A DNA stretch of 64,000 nt from Desulfarculaceae bacterium. GTDB taxonomy: Bacteria > Desulfobacterota > Desulfarculia > Desulfarculales > Desulfarculaceae. A model generated the notes under the pieces. The model was not told where the DNA came from. It did not search any database and was given only the letters and a program-made list of their open reading frames with translations. The translations under genes were made by a program, and so were the position numbers. Positions 29,973 through 61,300 of this stretch are shown in pieces (positions within the stretch are counted from its first letter, which is position 1; the number at the start of each line of letters is the position of its first letter). Where the stretch lies: NCBI GenBank assembly GCA_020444545.1, contig JAHLKT010000002.1, forward strand, positions 152,870 to 216,869, given 5' to 3'.

Positions 29973-29988
29973 ATGAGAAAATTTGTTT

Positions 29989-31584: not shown

Positions 31585-31666
31585 GGTGATCGGCCTGAAG
31601 CCAGAACGGGCCCACCCGGCCCTAGCCCGGGACGAGGGCTGCCCATGGGCAGGAGGAGAATTAGAC

Positions 31667-43506: not shown

Positions 43507-44736
43507 TCAGGCGAGGGCGCCCGCGCCGAGAAGCTGCACGTTGAGGATCTCGCCTTGGGACAGGCTTTCCCGGCCCTCGGGTATGGCCGCCACCGCATGG
43601 GCCTTGGCCAGGGCGCTCAGGCGGCTGCGCTTGGACAGGGGATGGAACAGGGGCAGGCCGTCCTCGCCGGGGGACAGGGAGCCTTGGAAAAAGTCGGTCC
43701 AGGCCGGGTTGCCGTCCAATATGTCCGCCGCTAGACGGGCGCTCACCCGGGGCAGGCCGGGACGGGCTCGTCCGGCCAGGGCGTGCAGGCCGGGCAGGGC
43801 GATCTGCAAAAAACCCATGAGATTGGAAGGCGGACCGCCGGGCAAGAGAAACACCGGCTTGCCGGCCAGCAGGCCGAAGCCCACCGCCTTGCCCGGGCCC
43901 ATGCGGATGCGGTGGAACACCTTGCGCCAGCCCAGCTCTTTCAGGGCCTGGGCCACCAGGTCGCGTTCGCCGCGCCAGGCCCCGCCGCTGGTGATCAGCG
44001 CGTCGCTGCCGGCCAGCAGGTCCTCCAGGGCTCGGCGCAGCTCCTCGGGCTGGTCGACCGCCATGCCCAGAGAGGGGGCCATGCCCTCGCGCGCGCAGAA
44101 CCCGGCCAGGGTGATGATGTTGGAGGCGTGCACCTGGCCCGGCCGTAGGGGCAGGCCGGGCATGACGATCTCGCTGCCCGTGCCCAGGATGCCCACCCGG
44201 GGCCGCGCGAACACCATGGCCGAGCCCAGGCCGCCCGCGGCCAGCAGCCCGGCGGCCACGGGGGTGATGACTCGGCCCGTGGCCAGGATCAGGTCGCCCC
44301 GGGCCACGTCGCCGCCTGTGGGCAGGATGTTCTTGGCCTGGGACGGGGCCAGCACCAGCAAATCGCTGCCTTCCAGGCGGGTGTATTCCTCGGAGACCAC
44401 CGCGTCCGCGCCGGGCGGGATGCGCGCGCCGGTGAGCACCCGCACCGCTTGGCCAGGCCCCACCGGGATTTCCTCGTGGTCCCCGGCGGCCATGATGCCC
44501 GCCAGCTCCAGGCGCACCGGCGCGGCCTCGCTGGCAGAGGCCACCTCGCTGCCGCGCAGAGCGTAGCCGTCCTTGCGCGAGGCCGCCGCGGCGGGGCTGT
44601 CCAGCAGGGCGCGCAGCTCGGCTCCGGCAACCCGGCCCACGCTCTCCAATAGCGGCGCGTCCTCCACGCCCAGGGGCTCCACGCCCTCAAGGGTCAGGCG
44701 CAGGGCCTCCTCGTATCCCAGAGACAAGCGGTTCAT
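43507..44736 (-). CDS. moeA: Molybdopterin molybdenum/tungsten-transferase MoeA (copy 1)
   Basis: 409-aa ORF with MoeA patterns: SRKDGYALR, VRVLTGARIPPGADAVV, ILGTGSEIV, LITSGGAW, GPGKAVGFG, LPGGPPS. Confidence 0.9.
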   Translation of the reverse strand: MNRLSLGYEEALRLTLEGVEPLGVEDAPLLESVGRVAGAELRALLDSPAAAASRKDGYALRGSEVASASEAAPVRLELAGIMAAGDHEEIPVGPGQAVRVLTGARIPPGADAVVSEEYTRLEGSDLLVLAPSQAKNILPTGGDVARGDLILATGRVITPVAAGLLAAGGLGSAMVFARPRVGILGTGSEIVMPGLPLRPGQVHASNIITLAGFCAREGMAPSLGMAVDQPEELRRALEDLLAGSDALITSGGAWRGERDLVAQALKELGWRKVFHRIRMGPGKAVGFGLLAGKPVFLLPGGPPSNLMGFLQIALPGLHALAGRARPGLPRVSARLAADILDGNPAWTDFFQGSLSPGEDGLPLFHPLSKRSRLSALAKAHAVAAIPEGRESLSQGEILNVQLLGAGALA

Positions 44737-44816: not shown

Positions 44817-45602
44817 ATGCAGCCTATGAAACACCCCCTGAAAACCCGGCCCATCCTGCGGGTGCGCGGCGACGCGGTAAGCCCGGACAGCATCACCTTT
44901 GCCGACGAGCGGCCGCTGAGTCTGGCGGTGCGCGGCCGGGCGCTCACCGTGCTCATGGCCACCCCGGGCCTGGAGTGCGAGTTGGCCGCGGGCTACGCCC
45001 TGACCATGGGCTGGGCCAAGCCCGGGGACACGCCGCCTCGGGTGGATTACCACGCCGGGCAGGCCCAGGTGGAGCTGGATTTGGCCGTGGACCCCGAGTC
45101 GCTGAGCCCTATCCGCGCCGCAGGGGGCGGCCTGCTGGGCCCCACCGAGGCCGAGCCCTTGGCGGAGGGCCCCGGCATGGAGCTGGGCCTGGCGCGAGGC
45201 CTCACCGAGGCCATGGGCCAAGGTCAGGTGCTCTACCCCCTGACCCGGGGTACCCACGCGGCCGCGCTGTTCGACGCGGCGGGCGGGCTGCTGGCCCTGG
45301 CCGAGGACGTGGGGCGTCACAACGGCCTGGACAAGGCAGTCGGGATGGCCTGGCTGGAGGGCAGCCTGAGCCGGGCGGTGGCCGTGGCCCTGTCCGGGCG
45401 GTGCAGCCTGGAGATGGTGCTCAAGACGGTGCGCGCGGGGGTGAGCATAATCGTGAGCGTGTCCTCGCCCACCGTGCCGGCGGTGGAGGCGGCCGAGCGG
45501 TTGGGCCTAACCCTGGCCAATTGCCACGGCCCGGAGAACCTGGTCATCTACACCCACCCCGGCCGCCTGCGCCAAAACGGCGAGCCCCTGCGCCTGGCCT
45601 GA
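44817..45602 (+). CDS. FdhD-family protein lacking the conserved Cys pair
   Basis: 261-aa ORF. The FdhD signature GRHNGLDKAVG and the C-terminal fold region are conserved. However, the loop that carries SCGxCG in copy 1 reads IRAAGGGLLGPTE. Confidence 0.8.
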   Translation: MQPMKHPLKTRPILRVRGDAVSPDSITFADERPLSLAVRGRALTVLMATPGLECELAAGYALTMGWAKPGDTPPRVDYHAGQAQVELDLAVDPESLSPIRAAGGGLLGPTEAEPLAEGPGMELGLARGLTEAMGQGQVLYPLTRGTHAAALFDAAGGLLALAEDVGRHNGLDKAVGMAWLEGSLSRAVAVALSGRCSLEMVLKTVRAGVSIIVSVSSPTVPAVEAAERLGLTLANCHGPENLVIYTHPGRLRQNGEPLRLA

Positions 45603-45605
45603 GTC

Positions 45606-46865
45606 TTATTGCCAACCCGATTCGGCGATCTCGTCGTGATAGATGAGCTGAATCTTGACCGTGGTGCCCGCGGCCAGGGGGCCGGAGTCGGGGGGAATGA
45701 TGATCAGGCAGTTGGCGTCGCGCATGGATTTGAACACCGATGACTTCTGGTCGCCGGCCAGGGCCACGTGCAGGCCGCCGTTGCCCAGGGAGAAACGCCC
45801 GCGCAGCAGGCGCAGGTTGTGGGTGGGCTTCTTGTCGATGGGCTCGTCCAGCACCGCGCTGACCACGGGCTTGAACAGCTTGCGCGCGCCCATGAGGGCC
45901 AGGAGGGCGGGGCGCACGAACTGGATGAAGCTGGTCATGGCCGAGACCGGGTTGCCCGGCAGGCTGAAGAAGAGCTTGTCGTCCATGGTGCCGAAGGAGC
46001 AGGGCTTGCCCGGCTTCACGCGCACCCGTCCAAAGCGCAGCTCCACGCCCAGGTCCGCGTAGGCGTCCTTCACGAAATCGTACTTGCCCATGGAGCCGCC
46101 GCCGGTGGAGAGGATCACGTCCGCGTCCAGGGCGCGGCCCAGGAGCTCGCGCACCTGGGGCAGGGAATCGCGGGCAATGCCCAGATGGTCCGGCTCGGCG
46201 TTGTACTTGCGGGCTTCGGCGCACAGGGCGTAGGCGTTCACGTCGCGGATCTGGCCGGGGGCGGGCTTTTCGCCCACCGCGGCTAACTCGTCGCCGGTGG
46301 AGATGATGGCCACGCGGGGCCGCTGGTACACCCGCACCGTGTCGTGGTTCAGGGCGGCCAGGATGCCCACATCGGCCGGGTTGAGCATGTCGCCCCGCAT
46401 GAGCACCGCCTCGCCGCTCTCGATATTCTCGCCCCGGCGGCGGTAGTTCTCGTAAGGGGCCACGGCGCGAAAGAGCTCCACCTCGCCGCCATGTTCTCGG
46501 CTGTCCTCGAACTGCACCACTGCGTCCGCGCCCGGGGGCAGGGGAGCGCCGGTCATGATGCGCACCGCCTTGCCGGGCGTCACCGTCAGGCCGTTCAGCG
46601 AGCCCCCGGCCTGCACCTCGCCCACGATCTTCAGGCGCGCGGGGCGCTGGGGTGAGGCCCCGGCGGTGTCGCTGGAGGCCACCGCGTAGCCGTCGCGGGC
46701 CGAGGAGTCGGTGGGCGGCAGCATGGCGTCGGCCACCACGTCCTCATGCAGCACCCGGCGCACCGCCTTAAAGATGGATATCTCCTCCGGCCCCAGGGGC
46801 GTCACCGCGTCCAGGATGATCCTCTGGGCCTCGGGCAGGGAGACGGTTTTCATCTCTTGGCTCAT
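45606..46865 (-). CDS. moeA: Molybdopterin molybdenum/tungsten-transferase MoeA (copy 2)
   Basis: 419-aa ORF with MoeA patterns: ARDGYAV, VRIMTGAPLPPGADAVV, IISTGDEL, ILSTGGGSMGKYD, VKPGKPCSFG, LPGNPVS. Confidence 0.9.
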   Translation of the reverse strand: MSQEMKTVSLPEAQRIILDAVTPLGPEEISIFKAVRRVLHEDVVADAMLPPTDSSARDGYAVASSDTAGASPQRPARLKIVGEVQAGGSLNGLTVTPGKAVRIMTGAPLPPGADAVVQFEDSREHGGEVELFRAVAPYENYRRRGENIESGEAVLMRGDMLNPADVGILAALNHDTVRVYQRPRVAIISTGDELAAVGEKPAPGQIRDVNAYALCAEARKYNAEPDHLGIARDSLPQVRELLGRALDADVILSTGGGSMGKYDFVKDAYADLGVELRFGRVRVKPGKPCSFGTMDDKLFFSLPGNPVSAMTSFIQFVRPALLALMGARKLFKPVVSAVLDEPIDKKPTHNLRLLRGRFSLGNGGLHVALAGDQKSSVFKSMRDANCLIIIPPDSGPLAAGTTVKIQLIYHDEIAESGWQ

Positions 46866-46886: not shown

Positions 46887-46930
46887 AAATAAAAGCGCCC
46901 GCCAAGCAAGCAGTGGCCGGCGGGCGTTTT
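46887..46930 (-). terminator. Rho-independent (bidirectional) terminator after bamF
   Basis: GCGCCCGCC (46895-46903) pairs with GGCGGGCG (46919-46926). The hairpin is flanked by AAATAAAA on the left and TTTT on the right. A second GC hairpin, CCCCCCGC...GCGGGGGG, lies at 46941-46966. Confidence 0.6.
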
Positions 46931-46973: not shown

Positions 46974-47813
46974 TCAGCTCTGGTCGCCCTTGCCGGGCAG
47001 GCTCCTTTGCTCCACGGGCAGGGGAGGGGGCACGGCCTGGCCGCCGCCCAGCTCCTGCACCGCCGAGAAGCGGGAAGGGCAGGCTTCGTGGCAGGTGCCG
47101 CACTTGATGCACAGATCCTGGTCGATCACGTGCACCTTGCCCTTGGCCCCTTCGATGGCCTGCACCGGGCAGCGCCGGGCACAGATGCCGCAGGCCTGGC
47201 ACTTCTCCGGGTCGATGTAAAAGGACACCGGCTCTTCGATGAGGCTGGTCACCTCGTCAAGAGTGAAGTGCCCTTCGTAGAGCTCCTTGTCCTTGAGCGG
47301 GGTGGAGAGCTTCTCGCGCTCGCTCACCTTGATGTAGGGGATGAGCTTGCGCACCGCGGCCAGCTTGGCCTTGACCTCCACCAGGTCCACGCCCTCGCCC
47401 TCGGCCAGGGGGCCCAGCTCCTTTGTCCGCTTGTTGAACTCGTCGACCTCGCGCGCGAACACCAGGCCCTCACCCGAGGACATGAAGGATACCTTGAGCC
47501 GGGCCGGGTTGAGCCCGATGTGCTCCAGGATGCGCTTGGCCAAGAGCACCGTGTTGAGAGCATGGTAGTTGCCGTGGGTGATGTAGTTGCATTCGCCCAG
47601 GCGGCAGCCGCCCACGAACACCCCGTCCATCCCGTTGGAGAAGGCCCGCAGAATAAACTCCAGGTCCACCCGGCCGGAACACATGACGCGGATGATTCGC
47701 ATATCAGTGGAATATTGTAGTCTGGAAACTCCAGCCATGTCAGCGGCGCCGTACGCTCACCAATGGCAGAGGAACCCCAGAGTCTTCGGCTTGAATTTGG
47801 CAGCCGCGCTCAT
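46974..47813 (-). CDS. bamF: BamF-like MvhD-domain / 2x[4Fe-4S] ferredoxin selenoprotein (Sec at 47757-47759)
   Basis: The ATG at 47811-47813 follows AAAGGAGGTGAGGAGCT. Hand translation gives MSAAAKFKPKTLGFLCHW-UGA-AYGAADMAGVSRLQYSTDMRIIRVMCSGRV... The UGA replaces the second Cys of the MvhD motif CNWCSY. The track shows only the part downstream of an internal Met (46974..47738). C-terminal clusters: CQACGICARRCP and CIKCGTCHEACP. Confidence 0.85.
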
Positions 47814-47847
47814 AGCTCCTCACCTCCTTTCCGGGTCTGGGCAAACA

Positions 47848-50800
47848 TCATTGGTTCACCGCCGCGTCTATCTGCCCCAGGATGTCCTCGTCCGGAGGGG
47901 CGTAGGCGTCGATTTGGCTGAAGACCTCTTCGTCCGTGAAATGCTTTAGGTAGATGGCCCCGGTGGGGCAGCAGGCGTTGCACAGGCCGTCGCCCTTGCA
48001 CAGCACCGGGTTGACCACGGCCTTGGGGCCGCCCTTGGTCTTGCGCATCTCGATGGCATCGTAGGAGCAGGCCTCCAGGCAGGCTCTGCAGCCCATGCAG
48101 GCGTCTTCCTTTACCTCGCACACGCTGCCCGACACGGTCACGATGTCGTTGGAGAGCATGGTGAGCGCGCGGCCGGCCGCGCCGTAGGCCTGGTTGATGG
48201 TCTCGTGGATGTACTTGGGGTAGTGGGCCGCGCCGCAGAGATACACGCCCTGAGTGGCGAACTCCACGGGGCGCAGCTTGACGTGGGCCTCCTTGAAGAA
48301 GCCGTCCTCGCCCAGGGCCGCGCCGAACAGGCCCGAGAGCTCCACGTTGTCCTCGCCGGGCACCACCGCCGCGGCCAGCATCACGTAGTCCGCGTCGATG
48401 GCGATCTCCGTGCTCAGGATGTAGTCGGGCAGGGACACCCTGAGGACCGGTTTGCCCTCGTCGGACTCGGCGGCCTCCACCTGGGGCGCCTGCTCGGGCT
48501 CGTAGCGCACGAAGCGCACTCCCAGCTCGTTGGCCTCGCGGTAGTGGTCCTCCATGTAGCCGTAGGTGCGCATGTCGCGGTAGAGGATGTATACGTCGCG
48601 CTCGGGGTTTTGCTTTTTCAGCTTGATGGCGTTTTTCACCGACTCGCCGCAGCACACGCGCGAGCAGTAGTTGCGCTCCTCGTTGCGGCAGCCCACGCAC
48701 TGGATCATCACCACGGTTTCGGCCTCGGCCAGGCCCTCGTCGCCGTTGGTGATGCGCTCCTCCAGCTCCAGGTGGGTCATCACCCGCTCGTCCTGGCCGT
48801 AGAGGTACTCGTTGGGCTCATAGACCCCGGAGCCGGTGGCCACCACGGTGACCCCGTGCTTGATCTCCACCAGGCCGCGCCAGCTCTTCACCTTGGTGAC
48901 GAAGTTGCCCACGTAGCCGGTGGCCTCGGTGATCTCGGCCCCGGTGTACACGTGCAACAGCGGGTGCTTGAAGACCTTGGCCTTTAGCTCTTCCAGATAG
49001 GCCGGCACGTCCAGGCCGTCCAGGGTGTCATGGATGCGCACCGCCAGGCCGCCCAGCTCATTGGACTTCTCCAGCAAATAGACCTCGTGCCCCTGCTCGG
49101 CGATGGACAGGGCCGCGGTCATGCCCGCGATGCCGCCGCCCACTACCAGGGCCGCCTTGTTAACCGGCAGGTCGATCTCGCTGAGCGGCTCCAATAGGCA
49201 GGCGCGGGCCACGGACATGCGGGTGATGTCCTGGGCCTTGGCGGTGGAGGCCTCTCGCTCCTTGGAGTGGCACCAGGAGCAGTGCTCCCGGATGTTGGCC
49301 ATGTCGTAGTAGTACTGGTTGAGGCCAGCCTCACGCAGGGTGTCGCGGAACAGAGGCTCCAGGGTGCGCGGGCTGCACGCGGCCACCACCACCCGGTTGA
49401 GCCCCTTCTCCTTGATCATGTCGGTGATCTCTTTGGCGCTGTTGGTGGCGCAGGAGAAAAGCTGTTCCTGGGCGTAGACCACGTTGGGCAGGGTCTTGGC
49501 GAACTCCACCGTGCCCGGCACGTCCACGATGCGGCCGATGTTGGCCCCGCAGTGGCAAACGAACACGCCGATGCGCGGCTCCTCGCCGGTCACGTCCTTC
49601 TCGGAAGGATACTCGCGCTCCTTGGTCAGCTTGTCGCGGCGGTAATCCAGAAGCTCGCCGGTCTGGCTGCCCGCCGCGCTGGCGCTGAACACCGACTCCG
49701 GAATGTCCATGGGGCCCTGGAAGGCGCCGGACACGAACACGCCGGGCGCGCCGGTGTTCATGGGGTTGAAGGGCTCGCCCTTGCAGAAGCCGTGCTGGTC
49801 CAGCTCCAGGCCGAACATCTCGGCCAGGCGCTGGTTGTCCTCCGGCGGGTTGAGCCCCACCGAGAGCACCACCATGTCGAACTCCTCCTCCTTGACCCCC
49901 TCGTCCGGGGTGGAGTAGCGGATGATGACGTTGTGGTTCTCCGGGTTCTCGCCCACGATGTTCACATAAGAGCGGATGAAGCGGGTGTCGGCCAGAGCGG
50001 CCGTGTTCTGGTAGTAGCGCTCGAAGTCCTTGCCGTAGGCGCGCACGTCGTTGTGGAACACGGTGCACTTGGCGTCGGCGTGGTGGTCCTTGGTCAGAAT
50101 CACCTGCTTCTGGGTGTAGGTGCAGCACACGCTGGAGCAGTAGGAGTTGTCGCCTTCGGTGAGGCGGCGCGAGCCGATGCACTGCAACCAGGCCACGTTT
50201 TGGGGGTGCTTCTTGTCGCTGGCCCGGAGGATCTCGCCCTCGTAGGGCCCGGTGGCGCACAAGAGGCGCTCGTAGTCCATGCTGGTGACCACGTTGGGGA
50301 TGCGGCCGTAGCCGTACTCCTCCTTCACCGCCGGGTCATAGACCTCGTAGCCCGGGGACAGCACCACCGCGCCCACCCTGATCTGAAGCTTCTCGGGCTT
50401 CTGGTGGAAATCGATGGCGTTTGCCTGGCAGACGTTCTCGCAGATGCGGCATTTCTTCTCTTTAAGGTAGATGCAGCTCTCGTCGATGTAGGCGATCAGG
50501 GGGATCGCCTGCGCGAAGTAGATGTGCACCGCCTTGTTGTCGGAAATGCCCTGGTTGAACTTGTCCGGGTACTCCACCGGACAATATTCCACGCAGGAGG
50601 TGCAGCCGGTGCAGGCGTCCTCGATAACGTATCGGGGCTTCTTGACCAGGCTCACCGTGAAATCGCCCACCCCTCCTTCCACCTTTTCGATATCGGTGTA
50701 GGAGAGGACCTCTATATTTGGATGCCGGCCGACCTCGACCAGTTTAGGCGAGAGTATTCACATGGAGCAGTCATTGGTGGGATATGTCTTGTCCAACTGC

Positions 50801-50973
50801 GACATATGCCCGCCAATGGCTGGGTTTTTCTCCACTAGGTATACTCGGTAGCCCGCCGTGGCCAGGTCCAGGGAGGCTTGGATACCGCTGATCCCGCCAC
50901 CCACGACCATCACGTCTCCGAATTCGCCGCCGGGCTGTTTAACAGCCTCTTGCGGCAACTGCTCTTCCGACAT
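47848..50973 (-). CDS. bamE: BamE-like HdrA-family flavo-iron-sulfur selenoprotein (Sec at 50758-50760)
   Basis: Track ORFs 50758..50973 and 47848..50682 are in the same frame and are joined by one UGA: ...[40 protein letters not shown]... This is the conserved HdrA Cys/Sec position. The FAD motif [16 protein letters not shown] and several ferredoxin-type Cys clusters are present. The joined protein is 1041 aa. Confidence 0.88.
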
Positions 50974-51098
50974 GGGCTCGTGTTCCCCTTTCCATATCCC
51001 CGGCGCTTCGCCCCGGGGCTTTATCGGCCGATTTGGCCGCTTATGCTCTTTCTGTCCGCCCGGGGCGGTTTCCCCCCCCCACCCCCGCGCGCGGCCCC

Positions 51099-52250
51099 CT
51101 AGAGGGCCTCGGCCACGATCTCGGTGATGTCCTTGATCTGGATGGCCTCATCGGCCTCCAGGGTAAGGATGCTGTCCTGGAAGTTGGAGATGCAGTAAGG
51201 GCAGGCCGTGGCCAGCACCTCGGCCTCCTGGTCCATGGCCTGCTGGAGGCGCAGGTCGCTGAAGCGCTCGCCCTTGGGGGTCTCCATCCAGATGCGGCCC
51301 CCGCCGCCGCCGCAGCACAGGCTGGCCTTGTGGTGGTCGGGCAGCTCCTTGAGGCTAAGGCCCGGCACCGCGCTCAGCACGCCGCGGGGCTCGTCGTACA
51401 CCCCATTGTGGCGGCCCAGGTAGCAGGGATCGTGGTAGGCCACCGTCTTGGCGAACTCGTTCTTCAACTCCAGGCGGCCCTCGGCAATCAGCTCGGCCAG
51501 GAGCTGGCTCACGTGGACCACCTCGAAGTTCACCGCGAAATCGGGGTACTCGTTTTTGAAGGTGTGATAGCAGTGGGGCGAGGAGACCAGGATCTTCTTC
51601 ACCCCGGCGTCGATGAAGTTCTTGATGTTTTCCTTGGCCAGGCGCTTGAACAGCTCCTCGTCGCCGGTTTTACGGATGCTCTCGCCGCAGCAGTTTTCCT
51701 GGGGCCCCAGGATGCCGAACTCCACCCCGGCGGCCTTGAGCACCTTGGCCGTGGCCTGGGCCACTTTCTTAAGGCGCGGGTCGTAGCTGAGGTAGCAGCC
51801 CGGGAAGTAGAGGTACTCCATCTCCTCGCTGAAGGTGCCGACCCCCTGGCCTTGGGCCCAGGCGGAGCGGTCCTTGCGCGACTCGTTGAGCGGGTTGCCC
51901 TCGCCGATGAGGCTGGCGCTGATGGCCCGGATGGGCTTGACCGAGGTGGGGAAGACGCCGTACTCGGTGGCCAGGCGCCTGAGGGCCACGCCGGACTCGA
52001 TCTGCTTCACGTCGCGGGGGCACTGCTGGGGGCAGCGGCCGCAGGTGGTGCAGAGCCAGATATCCTCGCTCTCGATCTCGGTCATGCCGAAGGTGGCCTG
52101 GCGCACGATCTTGCGCATGGAAAAATCGCGCACCCGGTTCCAGGGGCACACCGCGTCGCACAGGCCGCATTGGAAGCAGCGCTTGAACAGGTCGCCGCCG
52201 CTATCGCGTATTACCTCTACAATTTCTTTGTAGTCGGCTACATTCTCCAC
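51099..52250 (-). CDS. bamD: BamD-like HdrD-type iron-sulfur protein (2x[4Fe-4S] + two CCG domains)
   Basis: 383-aa ORF with a GTG start. Ferredoxin motifs: [12 protein letters not shown] and [15 protein letters not shown] motifs: ENCCGES and LCCGGGGG. Confidence 0.85.
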
Positions 52251-52288
52251 TGTCCGTGCCAGTCCTTCCGCCGGGTGCTAAGGGCGCC

Positions 52289-52831
52289 CTAGGCTTTTTT
52301 CGATTGGGACATCCGGGCAACGGCGTCTTGCAGCTTGTCCAGGCCGAACTTGTCGGCCAAAGACATGAGCCCGGTCTCCATGTCCTCCAGGGGAGCCTCT
52401 TCCTCCTCGTCCACCTCTATCTCGCGCTCTTCGTAGGTGAGCACGTCGTTGAGGCACCACTTGACGCACTGAGGCTCGTCGGCGCCCTCGCACATATCGC
52501 ACTTGAGCGGCAGCCCCGAGTCAGGGTCCTTGAACAGGTCGCGGGAGGGACAGGTGGCCCGGCAGAAGGCGCACTCGTCGTATTCCTTGCCGTCGATGGT
52601 GTATTTCTCGCGGCCCATGCACTCGGCCGGGGTGTACTCCCCGGCGAACACCGGCAGCCAGATGTCCTTGATGCGGTCGGTAAGGATCTGGATGCGGCTC
52701 TTGGCCGGGTTGATGCTGCTGTATCTGGGCTCGGCGTGGTAGGCGGAGCAGATAATCTCGCAGCCGCGGCAACCGTTGCAGCGGTCGGCGTCGACCTTGA
52801 TCGTCTTGATGGTCTTTTTAATTTTCGCCAT
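52289..52831 (-). CDS. bamC: BamC-like poly-[4Fe-4S] ferredoxin subunit
   Basis: About 180 aa. Cys clusters CNGCRGCEIIC, CAFCRATCP and CDMCEG...CVKWC are typical of the small electron-transfer subunit partnered with AOR-family enzymes. The start is either ATG at 52831 or TTG at 52837, and the gene overlaps the bamB 3' end. Confidence 0.85.
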   Translation of the reverse strand: MAKIKKTIKTIKVDADRCNGCRGCEIICSAYHAEPRYSSINPAKSRIQILTDRIKDIWLPVFAGEYTPAECMGREKYTIDGKEYDECAFCRATCPSRDLFKDPDSGLPLKCDMCEGADEPQCVKWCLNDVLTYEEREIEVDEEEEAPLEDMETGLMSLADKFGLDKLQDAVARMSQSKKA

Positions 52832-54791
52832 CTTCAAGCAAGCCTCTCTTGATCAGTTCGTCGGCCACGTAGTCCAGGTCCAGCTCATGCAGCCGTTCCT
52901 TGGTGGGAACGCCGTTGTCGTTCCAGCCCTTGAACTTGTAGTAGGTGCTGAGCAGCTCTTCTTCCAGCTCGGGGAAGCGGCGCTTCCAGTGATCCTCGGG
53001 CGGGTACTCGTCCTTGCGGGACATGCCGCGCAGGTTATTGAAGGCCCGGTGCAGGTTGCGGCTGCGGTTGACGATCTTCTGCAGGCTCTTCTCGTCCAGC
53101 TCCAGGCCGGTGAGCGCGGTGATCAGCTTGGGGTAGTTGTGGATGTGGTAGGGAGGCTTCAGGCAGAACGAGCCCATGCCCGCGCAGATGCACAAGGCAT
53201 CGTCGATGTTGTGCAGCATCTCCATCCAGTCCACGATCTGGGAGGCGATCTCCGGGGTGGGGTAGTAGGGGATCGCCTTCTCGCCGCGGACCTCCCACTC
53301 CAAGAGCCACTCCTTCCAGTTATCGTCGGGCAGCTGAGGCCAGTCTTCCACGAAGCGCTCGCGCTGCTCCTTCTTGGGGAAGGCGGCCTGGGGCCAGTTG
53401 CCCTCGATCTGGGTGATGCTGATCTTCTCGTTGGTGGCGTACATCAGGAAATAGAGCGGGTCGAGCATGCCCAGCTTGATGGGCAGCTGCTCGTGCTTCT
53501 TGATGTTGTTGTGGGCCAGCTTCTCGGCCTCGGGGCCCAGGGCCTTGCCCGCCCAGTAGGTGCCGTTGGCCAGCAGGTCGCCCACCTTGCCCTTGCGGTG
53601 CACCATGTGGTCCAGCAGCCAGAAGAAGCGGCCCTCCTTGTCCTCGGGGCAACCCTCGAAGTCCTCGTCGGTGAGGATGCCCGCCTCCTTGAGCTCCACC
53701 GCGTAGGCCAGGATCTGAGGGGTGGAGAAGCCGTCTACCCCGTACTCGCTGGCCTTCTGGGCGATCTGGAAGCCGAAGTCCAGGTTGTCCACGTAGGCGG
53801 CCATGGCGTAGGTGAGCTTGGAGAAGCACTTCATCATGTAGCGGGGCACGTTGGGATAGTCGATGAGCGCGCCGCAGTGCTGGGGGCAGTTGTAGCAGGA
53901 GATGAGCCGGGCGATGGAGTCGGTCTGGGTCTTGGACCAGCTCTCGTCGATCTCGTCGGTCCAGAAGTCCTTGCGCCGCTCGCGGGCGTTGCCCCAGGCG
54001 AAGTTCTCGGTGTGCCACTTCTCGTCGGTGTGCACCATTTCCGCCGGGGAGCCGATGCCCGAGAGGATGGTCATCACGTCGGGGATGGGGTTGTTGTTGC
54101 GGTAGTTGATGTACTCGGTGATCTCGTCCATGATCTCCATGAACTTGGCGCCGTCGTGGATGTGCACGTCCTTGGTGCCCCGCACCGCCACGGCCTTGAT
54201 CTTCTTGTCGCCCATGACCGCGCCGCCGCCCAGGCGGCTGGAGCTGGAGCGCGACTGCTCGATGGAGGCCACGAAGACCTTGTTTTCGCCTGCCGGCCCG
54301 ATGGCCGCCACCTGGGCCCGGGGCTCGTCCAGCTCCTCGCGGATCAGGTCCTGGGTCTCCAGGGCGCCCTTGCCCACCAGGTGGGTGGCGTCGCGGAGCT
54401 CAACCTTGTCGTTGTTGATCCAGACGTAGACCCAGTCCGGCGATTTGTTGCTGAAGACCACCTTGTCGTAGCCCGCGTGCTTCAGCTCGGCCGACCAGAA
54501 GCCGCCCATCATGGGATAGGCCAGAAGCTCCGACTGGGGCGAAACGAAGCTGATCACGGTCCGGTTGGCGCTGAAGGCCGGGGTGGCGTTCAGCAGGCCG
54601 GAGCTGAAGATCAGCAGGTTTTCGGGGTCAAAAGGCTTGGTCTCCGGCGGCACCCGGTCCCAGTGAATCTTGACGCTGGTGCCCAGGCCGCCAAGGTGCG
54701 TCTCCAACACTTTGGGATCGGTCTCCACCCGCTCGATATTGCCGGTGGCCAGATCGATCTCCAGGTTATAACCAGTCTCTCCGTACCTCAT
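52818..54791 (-). CDS. bamB: BamB-like tungsten-pterin AOR-family enzyme (class II benzoyl-CoA reductase active-site subunit type)
   Basis: Start chosen at ATG 54789-54791, behind AAAGAGGT. The sequence begins MRYGETGYNLEIDLATGNIERVETDP...GGLG and includes SCYNCPQHCGA, NNIKKHEQLP, ITQIEGNWPQA, KPPYHIHNYPK and YYKFKGWNDNGVPT. It follows my recollection of Geobacter metallireducens BamB much more closely than generic aldehyde:ferredoxin oxidoreductases. Confidence 0.88.
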   Translation of the reverse strand: MRYGETGYNLEIDLATGNIERVETDPKVLETHLGGLGTSVKIHWDRVPPETKPFDPENLLIFSSGLLNATPAFSANRTVISFVSPQSELLAYPMMGGFWSAELKHAGYDKVVFSNKSPDWVYVWINNDKVELRDATHLVGKGALETQDLIREELDEPRAQVAAIGPAGENKVFVASIEQSRSSSSRLGGGAVMGDKKIKAVAVRGTKDVHIHDGAKFMEIMDEITEYINYRNNNPIPDVMTILSGIGSPAEMVHTDEKWHTENFAWGNARERRKDFWTDEIDESWSKTQTDSIARLISCYNCPQHCGALIDYPNVPRYMMKCFSKLTYAMAAYVDNLDFGFQIAQKASEYGVDGFSTPQILAYAVELKEAGILTDEDFEGCPEDKEGRFFWLLDHMVHRKGKVGDLLANGTYWAGKALGPEAEKLAHNNIKKHEQLPIKLGMLDPLYFLMYATNEKISITQIEGNWPQAAFPKKEQRERFVEDWPQLPDDNWKEWLLEWEVRGEKAIPYYPTPEIASQIVDWMEMLHNIDDALCICAGMGSFCLKPPYHIHNYPKLITALTGLELDEKSLQKIVNRSRNLHRAFNNLRGMSRKDEYPPEDHWKRRFPELEEELLSTYYKFKGWNDNGVPTKERLHELDLDYVADELIKRGLLEDGEN

Positions 54792-55283
54792 TCTTACCTC
54801 TTTCGAAAGCAAAGAAACGGCGGGGATGGCTATGGAGCGATCCTCAAGTCCCTGCTTTGCATGCAGTCTTTTTAGACAGCCTACCGCCCCACATCTTAAG
54901 GGGCGGGTGAATGGTAGTTATAATATGGCTACAATGTAACTGAGTGTCAACCATAAAAACCACGGCAAGGCTTTATGTTAAAAATTCGGCCAGATGAGCG
55001 AAATTAGGGACAAAATCGTAGTTGAGGTTCGAGAGGGCACCTGTAAACCCCCTGTGATTGGTGGGGGCATGGCCCGGCGAAATTTGACCAGCTAGGGCAT
55101 AGGCTTTAGTATGAGCCCTAGGGGAGGGCTCGGGCGCGCCGCCGTGGCTGCTACGAAAAATATCCATAAAAGACATTAATATTCGCCCCTTACCCCCCAT
55201 GGTCCCCGCCAGGCCCTGGGACGCGTCCGCCGGAGTAATGACATGCCCGATTTGCACACCGCCTGCCGGGAGCCCGTGACCCC

Positions 55284-58200
55284 ATGAGCCTGGAGCCCAA
55301 CCAGCGCCGCGCCCTTTGCGGCATCTGCCCGGCCGGGTGCTGGATAATCGCCACCTACGATGGGGACGGCCGCCTGGCCAAGGTGGAGCCCGACCCGGCC
55401 TCGCCCCTGGGCATCACCTGCCGCCTGGGCGACCACTCGCCCGAGATCCTGTATTCCCCCGAGCGCCTGAAGACTCCCCTGCGCCGCAAGGGCCCCAAGG
55501 GCACCTACGATTTCGAGCCCATTTCCTGGGACGAGGCCTTCACGGCGATTGCCGAGCGCCTGCAAGGCATCAAGGCCGAGCACGGTCCCGAGGCCACCTG
55601 CGTGTACACCGGGCGCGGCTCCTTCGAGCTGGCCATGTGCGACCTGTACCAGCCCAAGGGCGTGGCGGTCTCCTCGGCCTCCTCGCTTTTGTTCCCCTTC
55701 GGATCGCCCAACACCATGGGCGTGGGCGCCTTGTGCTATGTGTCCTACGCCATGATCGCGCCCCATGTGACCCTGGGGAGTATGCACATCACCATGTTCA
55801 GCGACCTGGAGAACGCGGAGTTGATCGTGGTGTGGGGGGCCAACCCGGCCACGGACAGCCCGCCCATGGACTATCGCCGCATCGCCCAAGCGGTGGAGCG
55901 CGGGGCGCGCCTTGTGGTCATCGACCCCCGCCGCACCCTCACCGCCAAAATGCCGGGCGCGCGCTGGGTGCCCATCCGGCCGGGCACCGACGGAGCCCTG
56001 GCGCTGGGCATGTGCGCGGTGCTCATTTCCGAGGAACTCTACGACGAGGAGCTGACCCGCGACTGGACCCACGGCTTCGATCAGTTCGCTGCTTACGCCC
56101 AGCACTTTAGGCCCGAGGTGGTGGAGAACATCACCGGGGTGCCCGCTGACACGGTGAAGGAGCTGGCTCGGGAGATCGCCGGGGCGGCCGGGGCCGCGCC
56201 GGTGATGTACACCGGCCTGGAGTATTCCGACTCCGGGGTGCAGGCCATCCGGGCCACCCTGGCCCTGTGGGCCCTGGCCGGCCAGCTCGACGTGCCCGGC
56301 GGGCGCTGCTTTGCCATGCGGGAGAACAACTATCCCATCAACCGGGAACACCTGGTGGCCAACCCGGCCCCGGAAAAGGCCCTGGGCCGCGAGAGCTTCC
56401 CGCTCTACACCCTGTACCGCGAGGAGTCCCACGCCAACTGCCTGCCCCGCGCGGTGTTGGAGGGCGAGCCCTATCCCATCAAGGCCCTGATCAGTTTGGG
56501 CGCGTCGCTGTGCACCTCCTGGCCGAGGGCCTCGGTGTGGAAGGACACCCTGGCCGCCCTGGATTTCCTGGTGTGCGTCGACATCTTCCACAACGCTGAC
56601 ACCGCCTACGCGGACCTGGTCTTGCCCGCGGCCACCTGGTACGAGATCGAGTCCTACATGACCTACGGCCCCACCTTCCGCTTGCGCGAGCAAGTGGTGC
56701 CCCCGGTGGGCGAGGCCAAAAACGCCTTTTTCATCTTCAGCGAGATCGCCAAGCGCCTGGGCTACGGCCATCTTTACCCCCAGAACGAGCAGGAGGTGCT
56801 GGAGCGTGCCCTGGAGGGCGGGCCCTTCAGTTTGGACCAGGTGCGCGCCGCCGGGGGGCAAGTGAGTCTGCCCGGGGCCATGATGCAGTACAAGAAGTGG
56901 CAAAAGGGCCTGCTGCGCCCAGACGGCAAGCCCGGCTTCGACACCCCCACCGGCAAGATCGAGCTGTTCTCCACCATCCTGGCCGAGCACGGCTATGCCG
57001 GGCTGCCCGAGTACACCGAGCCCTCGGAGAGCCCGGTGTCGCGCCCCGACCTGGCCGAGGACTACCCCCTGGTGTTCAACTCCGGGGCGCGGGTGAGCAC
57101 TGACTTCCGCTCCCAATTCCACCACATCCCCGGCTTGGTAAAACGCCGCCCCGAGCCCACCGTGACCCTCAACACCCACGACGCCGAGGCGCGGGGCATC
57201 GTCAACGGCGACTGGGTGCGCCTTTCCTCGCCGCGCGGCGCGGTGCGTTTGCGGGCGCATGTGACCGAGGACATCGTGCCCGGCGCGGTGGACGCCAACA
57301 TGGGCGGGGGAGGGCCGCTAGGCCCCCAGGCCTGGCAGGACTGCAACATCAACGACCTCACCGAGCTGAAGTACGACCCCATCAGCGGCTTCCCCATTTA
57401 CAAGGCGCTCTTGTGCGAGGTGGCCAAAGAGCAGGGCGCGGGCGAGGCCGTGGCGGTGGACTCCGGCGAAGGCGCGGCGGCCCAGGTGCGGCCTGCGCCG
57501 CGCGCTGCCCAGGCGGGGCCGCGCATCTACCTGGACCACAACGCCACCACGCCCCTGGACCCGGGGGTGGCTTCGGCCATGAGCGAATTTTTGGCGGCCG
57601 AGTTCGGCAACCCTTCGGCCATCTACCGCGAGGGGCGCGCGGCGGCCACGGCCCTGGCCGAGGCGCGGCGCAAGCTGGCCTCCCTGCTGGGGACCACCGC
57701 CCGCCGCCTGACTTTCACCTCCGGGGGCAGCGAGGCCAACAACCAGGTGATCAAGGGCGTGGCCCTAGACCCGGCCAACCGGGACCAGCGCTTCATCACC
57801 TCCAGCGTGGAGCACCCCTCGGTGCTGAGGGTCTTCTCGTGGCTGGCCGATCTGGGCTGGGACGTGGTGATTCTGCCCGTGGACCGCGAGGGTCTGGTGC
57901 GGCCGGATGACCTGGTCGAAGCCATGGAGAAGCCCACCGCCCTGGTGAGCATCATGCTGGCCAACAACGAGACCGGCGGCTTGCAGCCCATCGCGGAGCT
58001 GGCCGCCCTGGCCCATGGGGCCGGGGCCTTGTTCCACACGGACGCGGTGCAGGCGGTGGGCAAGATTCCGCTGAACGTGGGTGAGCTGGGCGTGGACTTC
58101 CTGAGCCTGTCCGGCCACAAGCTGCACGGGCCCAAGGGAGTGGGCGCGCTCTACGCGCGGCAGGGATTGGAGCTGGCCCCCCTGGTGCATGGCGGCGGCC

Positions 58201-58679
58201 AGGAGGGCGGCCGGAGGGCGGGCACCGAGAACACCGCATCCGTCGTGGGCCTGGGCGCGGCGGCCGAGCTGGCCGCGCGCAGCCTGGGCAAAATGGGCGG
58301 CCAGGTGGCCGCGCTGCGCGACCGGCTGTGGTCGGGCATCCGGGAGCTGGTGCCGGACGCGCGGCTCAATGGCCCGCGAGAGGGACGTTTGCCCAACACC
58401 CTGAGCGTGTCCCTGCCCGGCATCCGGGGCGAGTCCTTGGTGCTGGCCCTGGATCAGAAGGGCGTGGCCTTGTCTTCGGGCTCGGCCTGCCGGGCGGGCA
58501 GCCCGGAGCCCTCGCACGCGCTGTTGGCCATGGGCCTGAGCGACGAGGAGGCGCACTGCGCCTTGCGTTTTTCCCTGGGCCGCGAGAACACGGCCGATGA
58601 GATCGAGCGAACCTTGCAACTAATGCGGCAGGTGATCGCCGAGAGCGAGAACCTGGTGCGCTTCGTGCCCTGCCGGTAA
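55284..58679 (+). CDS. Molybdopterin-oxidoreductase :: cysteine-desulfurase fusion (metallopterin-dependent ergothioneine synthase-like)
   Basis: 1131-aa ORF. Residues 1 to about 715 form a bis-MGD-type oxidoreductase: N-terminal cluster CGICPAGC...C, Molybdopterin and Molydop_binding regions (VTLNTHDAEARGIVNGDWVRLSSPRGAV). An Ala/Gly/Pro linker follows. Residues from about 745 to the end form a class-V aminotransferase / NifS-IscS domain: IYLDHNATTP, TSGGSEANN, PLP lysine SGHKLHGPKG, catalytic Cys SSGSAC. Confidence 0.85.
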   Translation: MSLEPNQRRALCGICPAGCWIIATYDGDGRLAKVEPDPASPLGITCRLGDHSPEILYSPERLKTPLRRKGPKGTYDFEPISWDEAFTAIAERLQGIKAEHGPEATCVYTGRGSFELAMCDLYQPKGVAVSSASSLLFPFGSPNTMGVGALCYVSYAMIAPHVTLGSMHITMFSDLENAELIVVWGANPATDSPPMDYRRIAQAVERGARLVVIDPRRTLTAKMPGARWVPIRPGTDGALALGMCAVLISEELYDEELTRDWTHGFDQFAAYAQHFRPEVVENITGVPADTVKELAREIAGAAGAAPVMYTGLEYSDSGVQAIRATLALWALAGQLDVPGGRCFAMRENNYPINREHLVANPAPEKALGRESFPLYTLYREESHANCLPRAVLEGEPYPIKALISLGASLCTSWPRASVWKDTLAALDFLVCVDIFHNADTAYADLVLPAATWYEIESYMTYGPTFRLREQVVPPVGEAKNAFFIFSEIAKRLGYGHLYPQNEQEVLERALEGGPFSLDQVRAAGGQVSLPGAMMQYKKWQKGLLRPDGKPGFDTPTGKIELFSTILAEHGYAGLPEYTEPSESPVSRPDLAEDYPLVFNSGARVSTDFRSQFHHIPGLVKRRPEPTVTLNTHDAEARGIVNGDWVRLSSPRGAVRLRAHVTEDIVPGAVDANMGGGGPLGPQAWQDCNINDLTELKYDPISGFPIYKALLCEVAKEQGAGEAVAVDSGEGAAAQVRPAPRAAQAGPRIYLDHNATTPLDPGVASAMSEFLAAEFGNPSAIYREGRAAATALAEARRKLASLLGTTARRLTFTSGGSEANNQVIKGVALDPANRDQRFITSSVEHPSVLRVFSWLADLGWDVVILPVDREGLVRPDDLVEAMEKPTALVSIMLANNETGGLQPIAELAALAHGAGALFHTDAVQAVGKIPLNVGELGVDFLSLSGHKLHGPKGVGALYARQGLELAPLVHGGGQEGGRRAGTENTASVVGLGAAAELAARSLGKMGGQVAALRDRLWSGIRELVPDARLNGPREGRLPNTLSVSLPGIRGESLVLALDQKGVALSSGSACRAGSPEPSHALLAMGLSDEEAHCALRFSLGRENTADEIERTLQLMRQVIAESENLVRFVPCR

Positions 58680-58699: not shown

Positions 58700-59707
58700 A
58701 TGCGCCTGAAAGCCTGCATCAAGGCCGAACAAGAGCGGCTGGAGATTCACGACTATTTGGACCTGGACCACCGCGAGGAGATGCGGCGCCTGGTGGGGGA
58801 GGGGCTGAGCGCGGCCGACAAGTGGCTGCACTGTAAATACCTCTACGACCAGCGCGGTTCCGAGCTCTTCGACCAAATCTGCCGCACCCCGGAGTATTAC
58901 CCCACCCGCACCGAGATGGCCCTCTTGGAGCGCCACGCCGGGGAGATCATGGATTTCTTCGCCTGGCGCGGGGGCGACCTGGTGGAGATGGGCTCGGGCT
59001 CCAACCAGAAGATACGCCTGCTCCTGGACGGCCACGCGCCGCGAGCCGGAGGGCATCTGCGCTACGTGCCCTTTGACATCAGCCAGAGCGCCCTGGAGGA
59101 GGCGGCCCGCGAGCTCCTGGAGCTATATCCCGGCCTGGAGGTCATGGGCATCGTGGGCGACTACACCCGCCATTTGGCCGCGTTGCCGCCGGGCCGCAAG
59201 CTGGTGCTGTTTTTGGGCAGCACCCTGGGCAACTTCAACGAGGCGGACGGCCTGGCCCTGCTCAGGGGCGTGGCCGCGGCCATGGGCCCGGAGGACCGCT
59301 TTCTCCTGGGCCTGGACATGGTCAAGCCGGTGGAGGTGCTGGAGGCGGCTTACAACGACGCGGCCGGGGTGACCAGCCGCTTCATCAAGAATATCCTGGC
59401 CCACCTCAACCGCGAGCTGGGCGCGGACTTCCCTCTGGAGCACTTCGAGCACCACGCTTTTTTCAACCCCCAACGCGAATGCATGGAGATGCACCTCCGG
59501 GCGCGGCGAGAGCTGAGCTGCCGGGTGGGCGACCTGGGCATGGAAGTGGGCTTCGAGCCCGGCGAGACGATCCACGTGGAGATCGCCCGCAAGTTCGCCC
59601 CCGAGAGCGCCCGCGCCATGCTGGAGCAGGCCGGGTTCCGCCTCACCCGCTGGTTCAGCGACGAGCGGGGCTGGTTCTCCCTGGTGGAGCTGGCCTTGGC
59701 GGGGTAG
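58700..59707 (+). CDS. egtD: EgtD-type L-histidine N-alpha-methyltransferase
   Basis: 335-aa ORF. KYLYDQRGSELFDQICRTPEYYPTRTE, VEMGSGSNQKIRLLL, YVPFDISQSAL, FLGSTLGNFN and AYNDAAGVTSRF match the EgtD / Methyltransf_33 family pattern. Confidence 0.88.
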   Translation: MRLKACIKAEQERLEIHDYLDLDHREEMRRLVGEGLSAADKWLHCKYLYDQRGSELFDQICRTPEYYPTRTEMALLERHAGEIMDFFAWRGGDLVEMGSGSNQKIRLLLDGHAPRAGGHLRYVPFDISQSALEEAARELLELYPGLEVMGIVGDYTRHLAALPPGRKLVLFLGSTLGNFNEADGLALLRGVAAAMGPEDRFLLGLDMVKPVEVLEAAYNDAAGVTSRFIKNILAHLNRELGADFPLEHFEHHAFFNPQRECMEMHLRARRELSCRVGDLGMEVGFEPGETIHVEIARKFAPESARAMLEQAGFRLTRWFSDERGWFSLVELALAG

Positions 59708-60109: not shown

Positions 60110-61300
60110 TTGACCATCGACGAATTACGTTTGGCAGCGGAAACGTACCTAGCCCCCCTGTTGTCTGCCCAGGTCCTTCCTGCCCTCGAACCTTGCCAAC
60201 CATATTGTAGCCGTGTTGCTGCACTAGACCCTAGCAGAATTGGTATCAAAGCAAGCGATGGTGATACAGAAAGGATTGTGATTAACCGGACTCCAGGGTT
60301 TCCTCCAGAAGAACTCCAAATAGCAAAGGATTTTACAGAAGAGTTATTTAATATTTATGGGGCTACGGCGCAGGGTTATCGGCAAGAGTTGTTATCATTT
60401 CTTCCTGCGAGAGCAATTGCTCGGCATCTGGGGGGAATGGAGGCAACCAAGATCGTTTTGCGTCAATTTGAAAAATGGGCTGCGAGGACATATGAAGGAG
60501 GGGCCATCTCGTCTTTAGTGGGTATCGATCCAGGATGTACTGAACGTGATGTTTTACTGGCAGAACTTTTTGAACACGATTTTTCGGCGGTGTTGAGCAA
60601 TGGGTTCGATACACTCCTGTTGTCTTCGCCTGGGGGAAGTGTGGGAGGTGCCAGACAATTATCCGTGAGTGAAGACAATTTGCGATTTGCGCCTTATAGA
60701 CTTAGCCCTGTTGCAGGGTGGTCCGAAGGCAATAAGGTCGCTTTCGTACTGAATAGGCTCGGTGAACAATTGGTTTTTAAGGGAAAGAAACTAATATTTG
60801 CAAAAAGGCGTGGAGAATGGCGCTATTATTCCCACGAAATGTATATCAGACAAATGCAGCCGCCTCAAAAGAGGGAACTACGTGAGGCTGTGTACGAAAG
60901 TTGTATCGATACTTCCTTCGCACGAACAGGTGGATGCATAATCATTGTTAGGTCCGGTTCCGTTGATGATGCAAATGAGTTGATATCTAGTTCGGATCGT
61001 CTAGATGGAACAAATCAATCTATTAAAACAAAGACAATTAAAACGATGACGAATAAAAAATTCCAAAAATTAGATCGACGATTGCGACAGGAGCTTCTCG
61101 CATTAGATGGTGCAACAATATTGACCCATGATGGAGATGTCCTCGCGGTTGGGGCAATAATTAGCGTTCCTTCTGGTAGCGACGGTGGAGGCCGTAGAGC
61201 GGCCGCCAAAAAGGGAAGCACGTTAGGGCTGGGCATTAAAGTGTCTGAAGATGGTGAGATAACAGCATTTAAGAACGAGGAACAGGTCTTTACAGCCTAG
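60110..61300 (+). CDS. Sensor-domain + diadenylate-cyclase-fold (DisA_N/DAC-like) protein
   Basis: 396-aa ORF with a TTG start behind AGGGGA, inside a visibly AT-rich islet. The C-terminal ~130 aa carry the ordered DAC motifs GGCIIIV, LDGATIL, GGGRRAAA (in place of GTRHRAA) and KVSEDGEITAF (compare VSEETGxIS). The N-terminal ~240 aa were not recognised. Confidence 0.65.
   Translation: MTIDELRLAAETYLAPLLSAQVLPALEPCQPYCSRVAALDPSRIGIKASDGDTERIVINRTPGFPPEELQIAKDFTEELFNIYGATAQGYRQELLSFLPARAIARHLGGMEATKIVLRQFEKWAARTYEGGAISSLVGIDPGCTERDVLLAELFEHDFSAVLSNGFDTLLLSSPGGSVGGARQLSVSEDNLRFAPYRLSPVAGWSEGNKVAFVLNRLGEQLVFKGKKLIFAKRRGEWRYYSHEMYIRQMQPPQKRELREAVYESCIDTSFARTGGCIIIVRSGSVDDANELISSSDRLDGTNQSIKTKTIKTMTNKKFQKLDRRLRQELLALDGATILTHDGDVLAVGAIISVPSGSDGGGRRAAAKKGSTLGLGIKVSEDGEITAFKNEEQVFTA

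Follow-up and report, generated by a model that had tools for sequence, protein, structure and literature searches.

Strict anaerobes depend on class II benzoyl-CoA reductase as the key enzyme for degrading aromatic rings, and the reaction it performs is, to our knowledge, the lowest-potential substrate reduction known without ATP. Five genes related to the bam genes of this tungsten (W) enzyme lie in a 64,000-nucleotide stretch of a Desulfarculaceae genome (contig JAHLKT010000002.1, positions 152,870 to 216,869; assembly GCA_020444545.1), hereafter the window. They were first pointed out in a prediction made from the letters of the sequence (the original prediction). Searches of the organism's own genome covered this 64-kb window. 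The open reading frame (ORF) listing and direct translation both confirm five closely packed genes on the minus strand at 46974-54791, bamB, bamC, bamD, bamE and bamF, with the sizes first given:

52818-54791, minus strand: bamB, catalytic W-bis-metallopterin/[4Fe-4S] subunit of the AOR family; 657 aa counted from ATG
52289-52831, minus strand: bamC, polyferredoxin subunit of 180 aa; overlaps the end of bamB
51099-52250, minus strand: bamD, 383 aa with a GTG start; HdrD/HdrBC-like, with 2x[4Fe-4S] and two CCG domains
47848-50973, minus strand: bamE, double-HdrA flavoprotein of 1041 aa; read through one UGA
46974-47813, minus strand: bamF (bamF*), 279 aa; MvhD-like [2Fe-2S] adaptor fused to a BamH-type 2x[4Fe-4S] domain; read through one UGA

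The subunits and their relatives of known structure

The cluster had been proposed to be a bamBCDEF-type class II W-pterin module, and the homologies of its products agree with this: BamB and BamC match the Geobacter metallireducens structure 4z3w, and BamD, BamE and BamF match Hdr and Mvh proteins. BamB, which would be 664 aa long if translated from a TTG seven codons upstream, contains the Pfam domains AFOR_N and AFOR_C and aligns over its full length with G. metallireducens BamB (PDB 4z3w_A; E 6.4e-297), to which it is 64.6% identical (BLASTP). It keeps the W ligand Cys322, the residues Glu251, Glu257 and His260 and the CxxCxxxC cluster motif. Within the AOR family, a protein Cys ligand to W is limited to the BamB and YdhV clades (PMC12096430), and this Cys322, part of an MMKC motif aligned with 4z3w_A, is present in all 81 of the 81 aligned BamB sequences. 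Cys322, Glu251, Glu257 and His260 have been listed as defining residues (PMC12096430), and Glu251, His255, Glu257 and His260 make up the proton relay and the Zn site. At this site the window BamB has His254/Thr255 (EMVHTDEKWH), in contrast to Val254/His255 in Geobacter (EMKVHDEKWH), and the His254/Thr255 pair is found in almost all BamB homologues, even those that are 72-74% identical to Geobacter BamB. Several BamB homologues (e.g. L058, L063, L048, L061; L-numbers denote fetched loci) have Met, Ala or Ser instead of Glu251, a residue that the literature treats as invariant, and the fetched copies from Desulfosarcina variabilis and Desulfosarcina cetonica are among them.

BamC matches G. metallireducens BamC (PDB 4z3w_E; E 6.3e-73) over residues 5-176. 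BamD contains two Pfam CCG domains and a Fer4_8 domain, and its PDB matches are HdrC and HdrB chains. The first CCG motif of BamD ends in SPHC, not CxxC, in 30 of 30 homologues, and the second is complete; at the level of the motif, and short of a residue-by-residue mapping, the SPHC ending is consistent with the Cys-to-Ser change carried by Geobacter BamD (preprint 10.64898/2026.04.10.717634). BamE reaches 953 bits against NCBIfam HdrA2, in three stretches, and likewise matches solved HdrA chains in three permuted stretches; it contains two FAD-binding Rossmann motifs (residues 20-59 and 608-650) and ends in a Fer4_7 domain (959-1006).

The gene order bamB-C-D-E-F is that of the G. metallireducens complex Bam[(BC)2DEFGHI]2 (PDB 4Z3W; preprint 10.64898/2026.04.10.717634), with which the window also shares full-length homology of BamB and BamC, the conserved Cys322, Glu251 and His260, a double-HdrA BamE, one degenerate CCG motif in BamD and selenocysteine (Sec) at BamF residue 19. 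The two differ in BamE, where Cys69-x-x-Sec72 stands at the site of Geobacter Cys59-Cys62 (preprint 10.64898/2026.04.10.717634). A match to Geobacter in order, sizes and selenocysteines had been claimed at the outset; it stands for the order and for Sec19 of BamF, and is not supported for the sizes or for Sec in BamE. Compared with the MvhAGD-HdrABC and Hdr complexes of methanogens (PDB 5ODC, 8RVU, 7BKB), BamE corresponds to HdrA, BamD to HdrBC and the N-terminal domain of BamF to MvhD. Unlike in those complexes, HdrA is duplicated and permuted in BamE, hydrogenase and heterodisulfide site are both lacking, and the low-potential branch leads to a W enzyme where those complexes have ferredoxin.

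Selenocysteine codons in bamE and bamF

Five short features bear on the reading of the two in-frame UGAs:

50758-50760, minus strand: UGA for Sec72 of BamE, in TNDCSM*ILSPK; motif Cys69-x-x-Sec72
47757-47759, minus strand: UGA for Sec19 of BamF, in FLCHW*AY
50725-50742, minus strand: SECIS-like hairpin in bamE, 7-bp stem and AGGU loop; starts 15 nt after the UGA (positions 19-36 from its U)
47718-47737, minus strand: SECIS-like hairpin in bamF, 8 bp; starts 19 nt after the UGA (positions 23-42 from its U)
47816-47830, minus strand: ribosome-binding site of full-length bamF, AAAGGAGGTGAGGAG, 2 nt 5' of the ATG at 47813

It had been suggested that two Sec codons, both on conserved Cys positions, were split by ORF callers, and the comparison with homologous loci supports this. 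Of 27 homologous loci, 24 have TGA as the codon for BamE residue 72 and three have TGC; for BamF residue 19 the figures are TGA in 19 of 22, with TGC in the rest, and the loci span several phyla. Each gene in the window has one in-frame TGA, with an unbroken reading frame on both sides. The check proposed along with the original prediction, whether genes of relatives end at these codons, gave TGA or TGC at both sites. In alignments with solved structures, Sec72 of BamE falls on the second Cys of the HdrA motif DCSMC and Sec19 of BamF on a Cys of MvhD (CNWC), proteins of the methanogen complexes introduced above. Sec19 has been established experimentally in Geobacter BamF (preprint 10.64898/2026.04.10.717634), and for BamE a selenocysteine has been published in Desulfococcus multivorans (PMC5109826). 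On this comparative evidence, both in-frame UGAs are decoded as selenocysteine.

A prediction of selenocysteine insertion sequences (SECIS) had been proposed as a check, and conserved hairpins follow both UGAs. A bacterial SECIS is a hairpin close behind the UGA whose apical loop contains G/U; here the apical loops, AGGU in bamE and GUU in bamF, lie 24-31 nt from the UGA. The bamE hairpin was predicted by window folding and by alifold; over 24 loci, 97.6% of its cells are paired and two pairs are compensatory, whereas the three Cys-type homologues do not have it. In bamF, 96.1% of cells are paired across 19 loci, and two pairs covary, with U-A to G-C compensation in three loci. Two results speak against these elements: the bamF hairpin has a similar counterpart in Cys-type homologues, and the stability of both hairpins does not exceed that of shuffles (z -0.57 for bamE, -0.09 for bamF). 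The hairpins are thus conserved structures that lend support without being decisive, and the one in bamF is weak evidence by itself; the case for selenocysteine rests on the comparative evidence.

The TGAs could also be true stops or signs of decay, with bamE and bamF split or truncated as they are in public annotation. Gene callers do divide BamE into 71 + 944 aa and give BamF as 236-254 aa, and the window contains no tRNA gene, for Sec or otherwise, and no sel gene. Against this, the codon at the Cys-aligned sites alternates only between TGA and TGC across phyla, the frames run on at each TGA, Sec is experimentally established at residue 19 of Geobacter BamF, and the sole strong ribosome-binding site, AAAGGAGGTGAGGAG, precedes the extended bamF start, as noted from the beginning. 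Genuine termination is, on balance, highly improbable, and we retain the reading of both UGAs as Sec codons.

The annotation itself can be followed through the 120 best public BamF homologues (query 46974-47738). All 120 carry FlpD + Fer4 domains and bear no other name than 'hydrogenase iron-sulfur subunit', and about 110 are called at ~253-260 aa, with the Met after the Sec codon as start. The public annotation of the BamF family is in systematic error, with the start placed after the Sec codon. In practice, both selenoprotein genes, bamE and bamF, are systematically split or truncated in public annotation.

The fused BamF domain, its distribution and the predicted electron path

The C-terminal part of BamF separates this cluster from the Geobacter type:

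46977-47246, minus strand: C-terminal domain of BamF, residues ~190-279; homologous to the BamH ferredoxin-acceptor domain and in the position occupied by the winged helix in Geobacter-type BamF

Pfam places FlpD at residues 12-134 of the window BamF and two Fer4 domains at 199-247, whereas short BamF proteins carry HTH_5 at their C-terminal end. In PDB searches BamF matches MvhD chains (E 4e-38) and the C-termini of HydB (E 3e-13). An AlphaFold model (pLDDT 84, pTM 0.81) of residues 26-279, which form a 254-aa ORF beyond the UGA, likewise gave MvhD first and HydB-type subunits next in Foldseek. The C-terminal 2x[4Fe-4S] ferredoxin-interaction domain of HydB-type subunits in HydABC, NfnABC and StnABC (PDB 8A6T, 7Q4V, 9BP5, 8OH5) is homologous to BamF residues ~142-250; in contrast to these subunits, BamF has no FMN/NAD core, no HydB [2Fe-2S] domain and no Zn-stabilised linker cysteines.

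The similarity to BamH is more specific. A 71-aa core of the C-terminal domain is 56-66% identical to nine BamH C-termini, and BamF is 43% identical to residues 490-635 of Desulfocarbo indianensis BamH (BLASTP, E 2e-32). Long BamF and BamH proteins also have in common a proline-rich tail, which reads GEPVPPPxPEE in most homologues and QAVPPPLPVE in the window. Judged from these alignments, the extra C-terminal domain of long BamF is specifically BamH-like and no generic ferredoxin. In Geobacter, the C-terminal domain of BamH (clusters H1, H2) accepts external reduced ferredoxin, and BamF consists of MvhD and a C-terminal winged helix that docks BamI (preprint 10.64898/2026.04.10.717634). The original prediction took the MvhD-ferredoxin fusion for a Geobacter-like BamF, which this architecture contradicts. 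It did record both the fusion and the missing bamGHI, and left out the connection between them, namely that the fused domain corresponds to the ferredoxin-acceptor domain of BamH. When the 89-aa C-terminal domain was compared with a library of 1.84 billion representatives, full-length single matches occurred in proteins of ~250 aa and of ~634 aa; no ratio of BamF-type to BamH-type carriers is given, because multi-repeat polyferredoxins dominated the matches.

One origin of the fusion was considered and rejected, a recent in-frame deletion joining the bamF 5' end to the bamH 3' end in a D. indianensis-like cluster. It was rejected because the identity of the window's fused domain to D. indianensis BamH (66%) does not exceed its identity to other long BamFs (63-82%), and because BamH domains form a clade of their own in a neighbour-joining tree, with the signature KCTKCG as against KCIKCG in long BamF.

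The window differs from the Geobacter system in having no bamGHI, as originally reported: Pfam scans of ~45 ORFs from it found no NuoE-, NuoF- or BamI-like gene in the 64 kb, and the only match in a tblastn search with BamG, BamH and BamI of L022 was the C-terminus of BamF itself. Its BamF has the BamH-type 2x[4Fe-4S] domain in place of the winged helix. These two features were followed through 80 loci from reference genomes with BamB and two closer loci; counting the window, 27 loci could be classified. Long BamF without bamGHI within 10 kb was found in 15 loci, short BamF followed by bamGHI in 11, and short BamF without adjacent bamGHI in one. The lack of bamGHI, presented at first as unusual, is therefore real in the window and not rare. 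The long type (BamF of ~275-285 aa) comprises the window and L081, its closest relative, together with Desulfonema magnum, several Desulfatiglandales, Dehalococcoidia and Bacillota. The short type, which includes D. indianensis and Desulfosarcina variabilis, has a BamF of ~255 aa with a winged helix (HTH_5), and downstream of it bamG (150 aa, 2Fe-2S_thioredx), bamH (642 aa, Complex1_51K) and bamI (~200 aa). Homologues of bamG, bamH and bamI stand only, and always, directly 3' of short-BamF genes (11 loci), and BamF type and adjacent bamGHI are mutually exclusive in 26 of the 27 loci. The sole exception, L052 (JAZDOW010000210.1, 1657-5590), has Cys-type BamE and BamF without TGAs and a winged-helix BamF; there is no bamGHI in the 22 kb of this locus, and bamEF lie upstream, not downstream, of bamB.

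The closest named cultured relative, D. indianensis (L082, LBMP01000002.1), which we take to be a described benzoate oxidiser, has a syntenic cluster with a BamB 83% identical to that of the window, both TGAs and the same two genes upstream, a fusion of Mo-oxidoreductase and cysteine desulfurase and a Methyltransf_33 gene. It differs from the window in having the full form, with short BamF (FlpD + HTH_5), bamG of 150, bamH of 642 and bamI of 205 aa. In neighbour-joining trees of BamB, BamD and BamE, the long and short types are not separated and lie interspersed, which hints at an exchange of the cluster 3' end between the types, although such trees are too weak for a conclusion.

A missing adjacent bamGHI is not new in itself, because BamB-F clusters have been reported, and are expressed, in two sulfate reducers that likewise have no bamGHI beside bamF. 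In NaphS2 (NPH_7171-7176) BamB-F are induced on benzoate in arrays (PMC2988823), and in BzS1 the BamB-F proteins were detected by proteomics (PMC13416013). No description of the BamF domain swap was found in the searchable literature, where coverage of key papers is incomplete, so a prior description is possible; the five-subunit form is apparently common but undescribed.

The reading that we favour, and hold to be reasonably probable, is that the cluster specifies an aryl-CoA reductase of class II, a tungsten enzyme that needs no ATP and relies on flavin-based electron bifurcation. Benzoyl-CoA is its most probable substrate, and the enzyme would have a short form of five subunits that takes electrons from ferredoxin only and bifurcates them once. 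By homology to the Geobacter complex, BamB would reduce the ring at its W-bis-metallopterin centre and BamC would wire BamB to BamE, a fused HdrA dimer whose bifurcating FAD would lie beside Cys69-x-x-Sec72. BamD would be the high-potential electron exit, as it is to electron-transferring flavoprotein (ETF) in Geobacter, and BamF an MvhD-type [2Fe-2S] adaptor with Sec19. Geobacter BamGHI confurcates reduced ferredoxin and NADH and docks via BamI on the BamF winged helix (preprint 10.64898/2026.04.10.717634). In the short form, reduced ferredoxin would be the sole donor and would feed BamF*, from which electrons would pass to the BamE flavin. A single HdrA-type bifurcation would then part the electrons, one reaching benzoyl-CoA by way of BamBC and the other a high-potential acceptor by way of BamD, with no NADH-dependent confurcation step. 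Cys69-x-x-Sec72 would form a selenenylsulfide, the counterpart of the Cys59-Cys62 disulfide beside the flavin in Geobacter. The sequences show the gene content, the homologies, the Sec codons and the domain swap with its distribution; that the substrate is benzoyl-CoA, that ferredoxin is the only donor and that the enzyme works without BamGHI we infer from them. The output side is conserved: three loci with long bamF (L011, L039, L078) have etfBA directly 3' of it, which matches ETF as the BamD acceptor in Geobacter, and in L039 and L078 an ETF:quinone-oxidoreductase-like FeS protein is encoded between bamF and etfBA.

Several points weigh against the five-subunit benzoyl-CoA reductase. Pfam searches of ~45 ORFs of the 64-kb window found neither benzoate-CoA ligase nor dienoyl-CoA hydratase, ETF genes or any other gene of the pathway. 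The identity of 64.6% to Geobacter BamB, which bears out the caution about the substrate voiced at the start, is in the range of two paralogues of unknown role, Gmet_1802 (66%) and D. multivorans BamB1 (64%) (PMC5109826). The BamF domain architecture of NaphS2 and BzS1 is described in neither paper, and all trees are neighbour-joining only. Furthermore, bamGHI could act in trans, because only 64 kb of the genome, on a contig of about 839 kb, is in view and NaphS2, with BamB-F in one cluster, keeps BamG-I homologues in others (PMC2988823).

This last point leads to the explanation that the enzyme is an ordinary eight-subunit BamBCDEFGHI complex, with bamGHI elsewhere in the genome and confurcation of NADH and ferredoxin retained. 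Its difficulty lies in BamF, where the winged helix, the docking site of BamI in the Geobacter structure, is missing and the ferredoxin-acceptor domain expected from BamH is already present; the mutual exclusion of BamF type and adjacent bamGHI in 26 of 27 loci also argues against it, and we consider it unlikely. Somewhat less likely still, in our view, is a BamB-paralogue system acting on something other than benzoyl-CoA, for example a substituted aryl-CoA, some other aryl-CoA or an unrelated acceptor of low potential. The identity to Geobacter BamB and the window without benzoyl-CoA pathway genes would suit it, as would the fetched loci, where most bamBC pairs have no adjacent bamDEF and many genomes have several bamB copies. 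Yet a full bamCDEF set accompanies the window bamB, Cys322 (W ligand), Glu251 and His260 (proton relay) are all retained in its product, and the syntenic cluster with the 83% identical BamB belongs to D. indianensis, presumably a benzoate oxidiser. A short benzoyl-CoA reductase therefore remains our preferred reading of the window.

A broader proposal, which we put forward more tentatively and as possible rather than probable, is that long-BamF clusters in general encode a distinct and widespread minimal BamBCDEF* reductase without BamGHI, in which the BamH domain has moved onto BamF and ferredoxin alone would drive one bifurcation. About half of the classifiable complete clusters are without a BamGHI module and have the BamH ferredoxin-docking domain on BamF instead, with representatives in Desulfarculales, Desulfatiglandales, Desulfonema, Dehalococcoidia, Bacillota and others. 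The current model draws on two complexes (Geobacter, Desulfosarcina) and requires BamGHI to merge NADH and ferredoxin electrons before bifurcation (April 2026 preprint 10.64898/2026.04.10.717634). Compared with this published model, the architecture of the long-BamF clusters predicts a simpler electron input. If the minimal reading is true, the confurcation-plus-bifurcation tandem of Geobacter would be one of two solutions and no general requirement. If long-BamF enzymes are active as they stand, they would offer a simpler five-subunit system for work on structure and mechanism, and the energy balance assumed for benzoate oxidation would change in many sulfate reducers and syntrophs. They would also give a better gene marker set, since bamGHI would be no prerequisite when calling the pathway in metagenomes.

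Flanking signals and neighbouring genes

The bam genes are bordered by the following features:

46888-46930 (approx.), minus strand: terminator-like hairpin 3' of bamF, G+C-rich, with an A-tract before and a T-tract after
54922-54950, minus strand: sigma-70-like promoter match upstream of bamB, TTGACA-17-CATATT, 10/12 positions; consensus match only
45606-46865, minus strand: moeA, after the terminator-like hairpin; Pfam MoeA_N/MoCF_biosynth/MoeA_C
44817-45602, plus strand: fdhD, Pfam FdhD-NarQ; cofactor maturation
43507-44736, minus strand: second moeA, assigned by Pfam; cofactor-maturation gene near the bam cluster

A bidirectional terminator and then moeA had been noted after bamF, and the sequence does have a terminator-like hairpin there, followed by moeA. 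The stem lies at 46896-46912, followed by CTTTTATTT, and the hairpin, similar to an intrinsic terminator, could work in both directions. Homologues of moeA adjoin bamB in more than 30 fetched loci. Genes for maturation of the Mo/W cofactor are unusually concentrated in the window: two moeA genes flank the first fdhD, and a second fdhD (13466-14329) with fmdE (14372-14944), both on the plus strand, is found elsewhere. FmdE-MoCF fusions lie 3' of bamF in L004 and L073.

Divergent from bamB, at 55284-58679 on the plus strand, is a fusion ORF of 1131 aa, composed of a Mo/W-bis-pyranopterin guanine dinucleotide oxidoreductase (residues 61-708) and a class-V aminotransferase/cysteine desulfurase (748-1109). 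It is kept beside bamB in the Desulfarculales loci L002, L081, L082 and L083 (81-85% identity) and in L035 (65%). A fusion of Mo-oxidoreductase and cysteine desulfurase recalls the logic of eukaryotic molybdenum cofactor sulfurase, by analogy with which the protein may be a cofactor-sulfuration factor. Directly after it, at 58700-59707 (plus strand), an EgtD-like histidine-specific S-adenosylmethionine methyltransferase (Methyltransf_33) is encoded, and the two genes are also paired in L081, L082 and L035. Beyond them, the segment 60001-62000 has a G+C content of 0.48, compared with ~0.66 elsewhere in the window, and may be foreign DNA; a 396-aa ORF without Pfam match (60110-61300) is followed there by a LuxR-type regulator (61927-62997).

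An Rfam scan gave no match inside the bam cluster, and its sole match in the window is a cobalamin riboswitch at 29983-30173 (108.8 bits). It lies upstream of a ThiC-family radical-SAM gene (30274-31584, plus strand), which is followed by a CobT-type phosphoribosyltransferase gene (31586-32728, plus strand), and the set at 29983-32728 looks like a benzimidazole lower-ligand (bza-type) operon.

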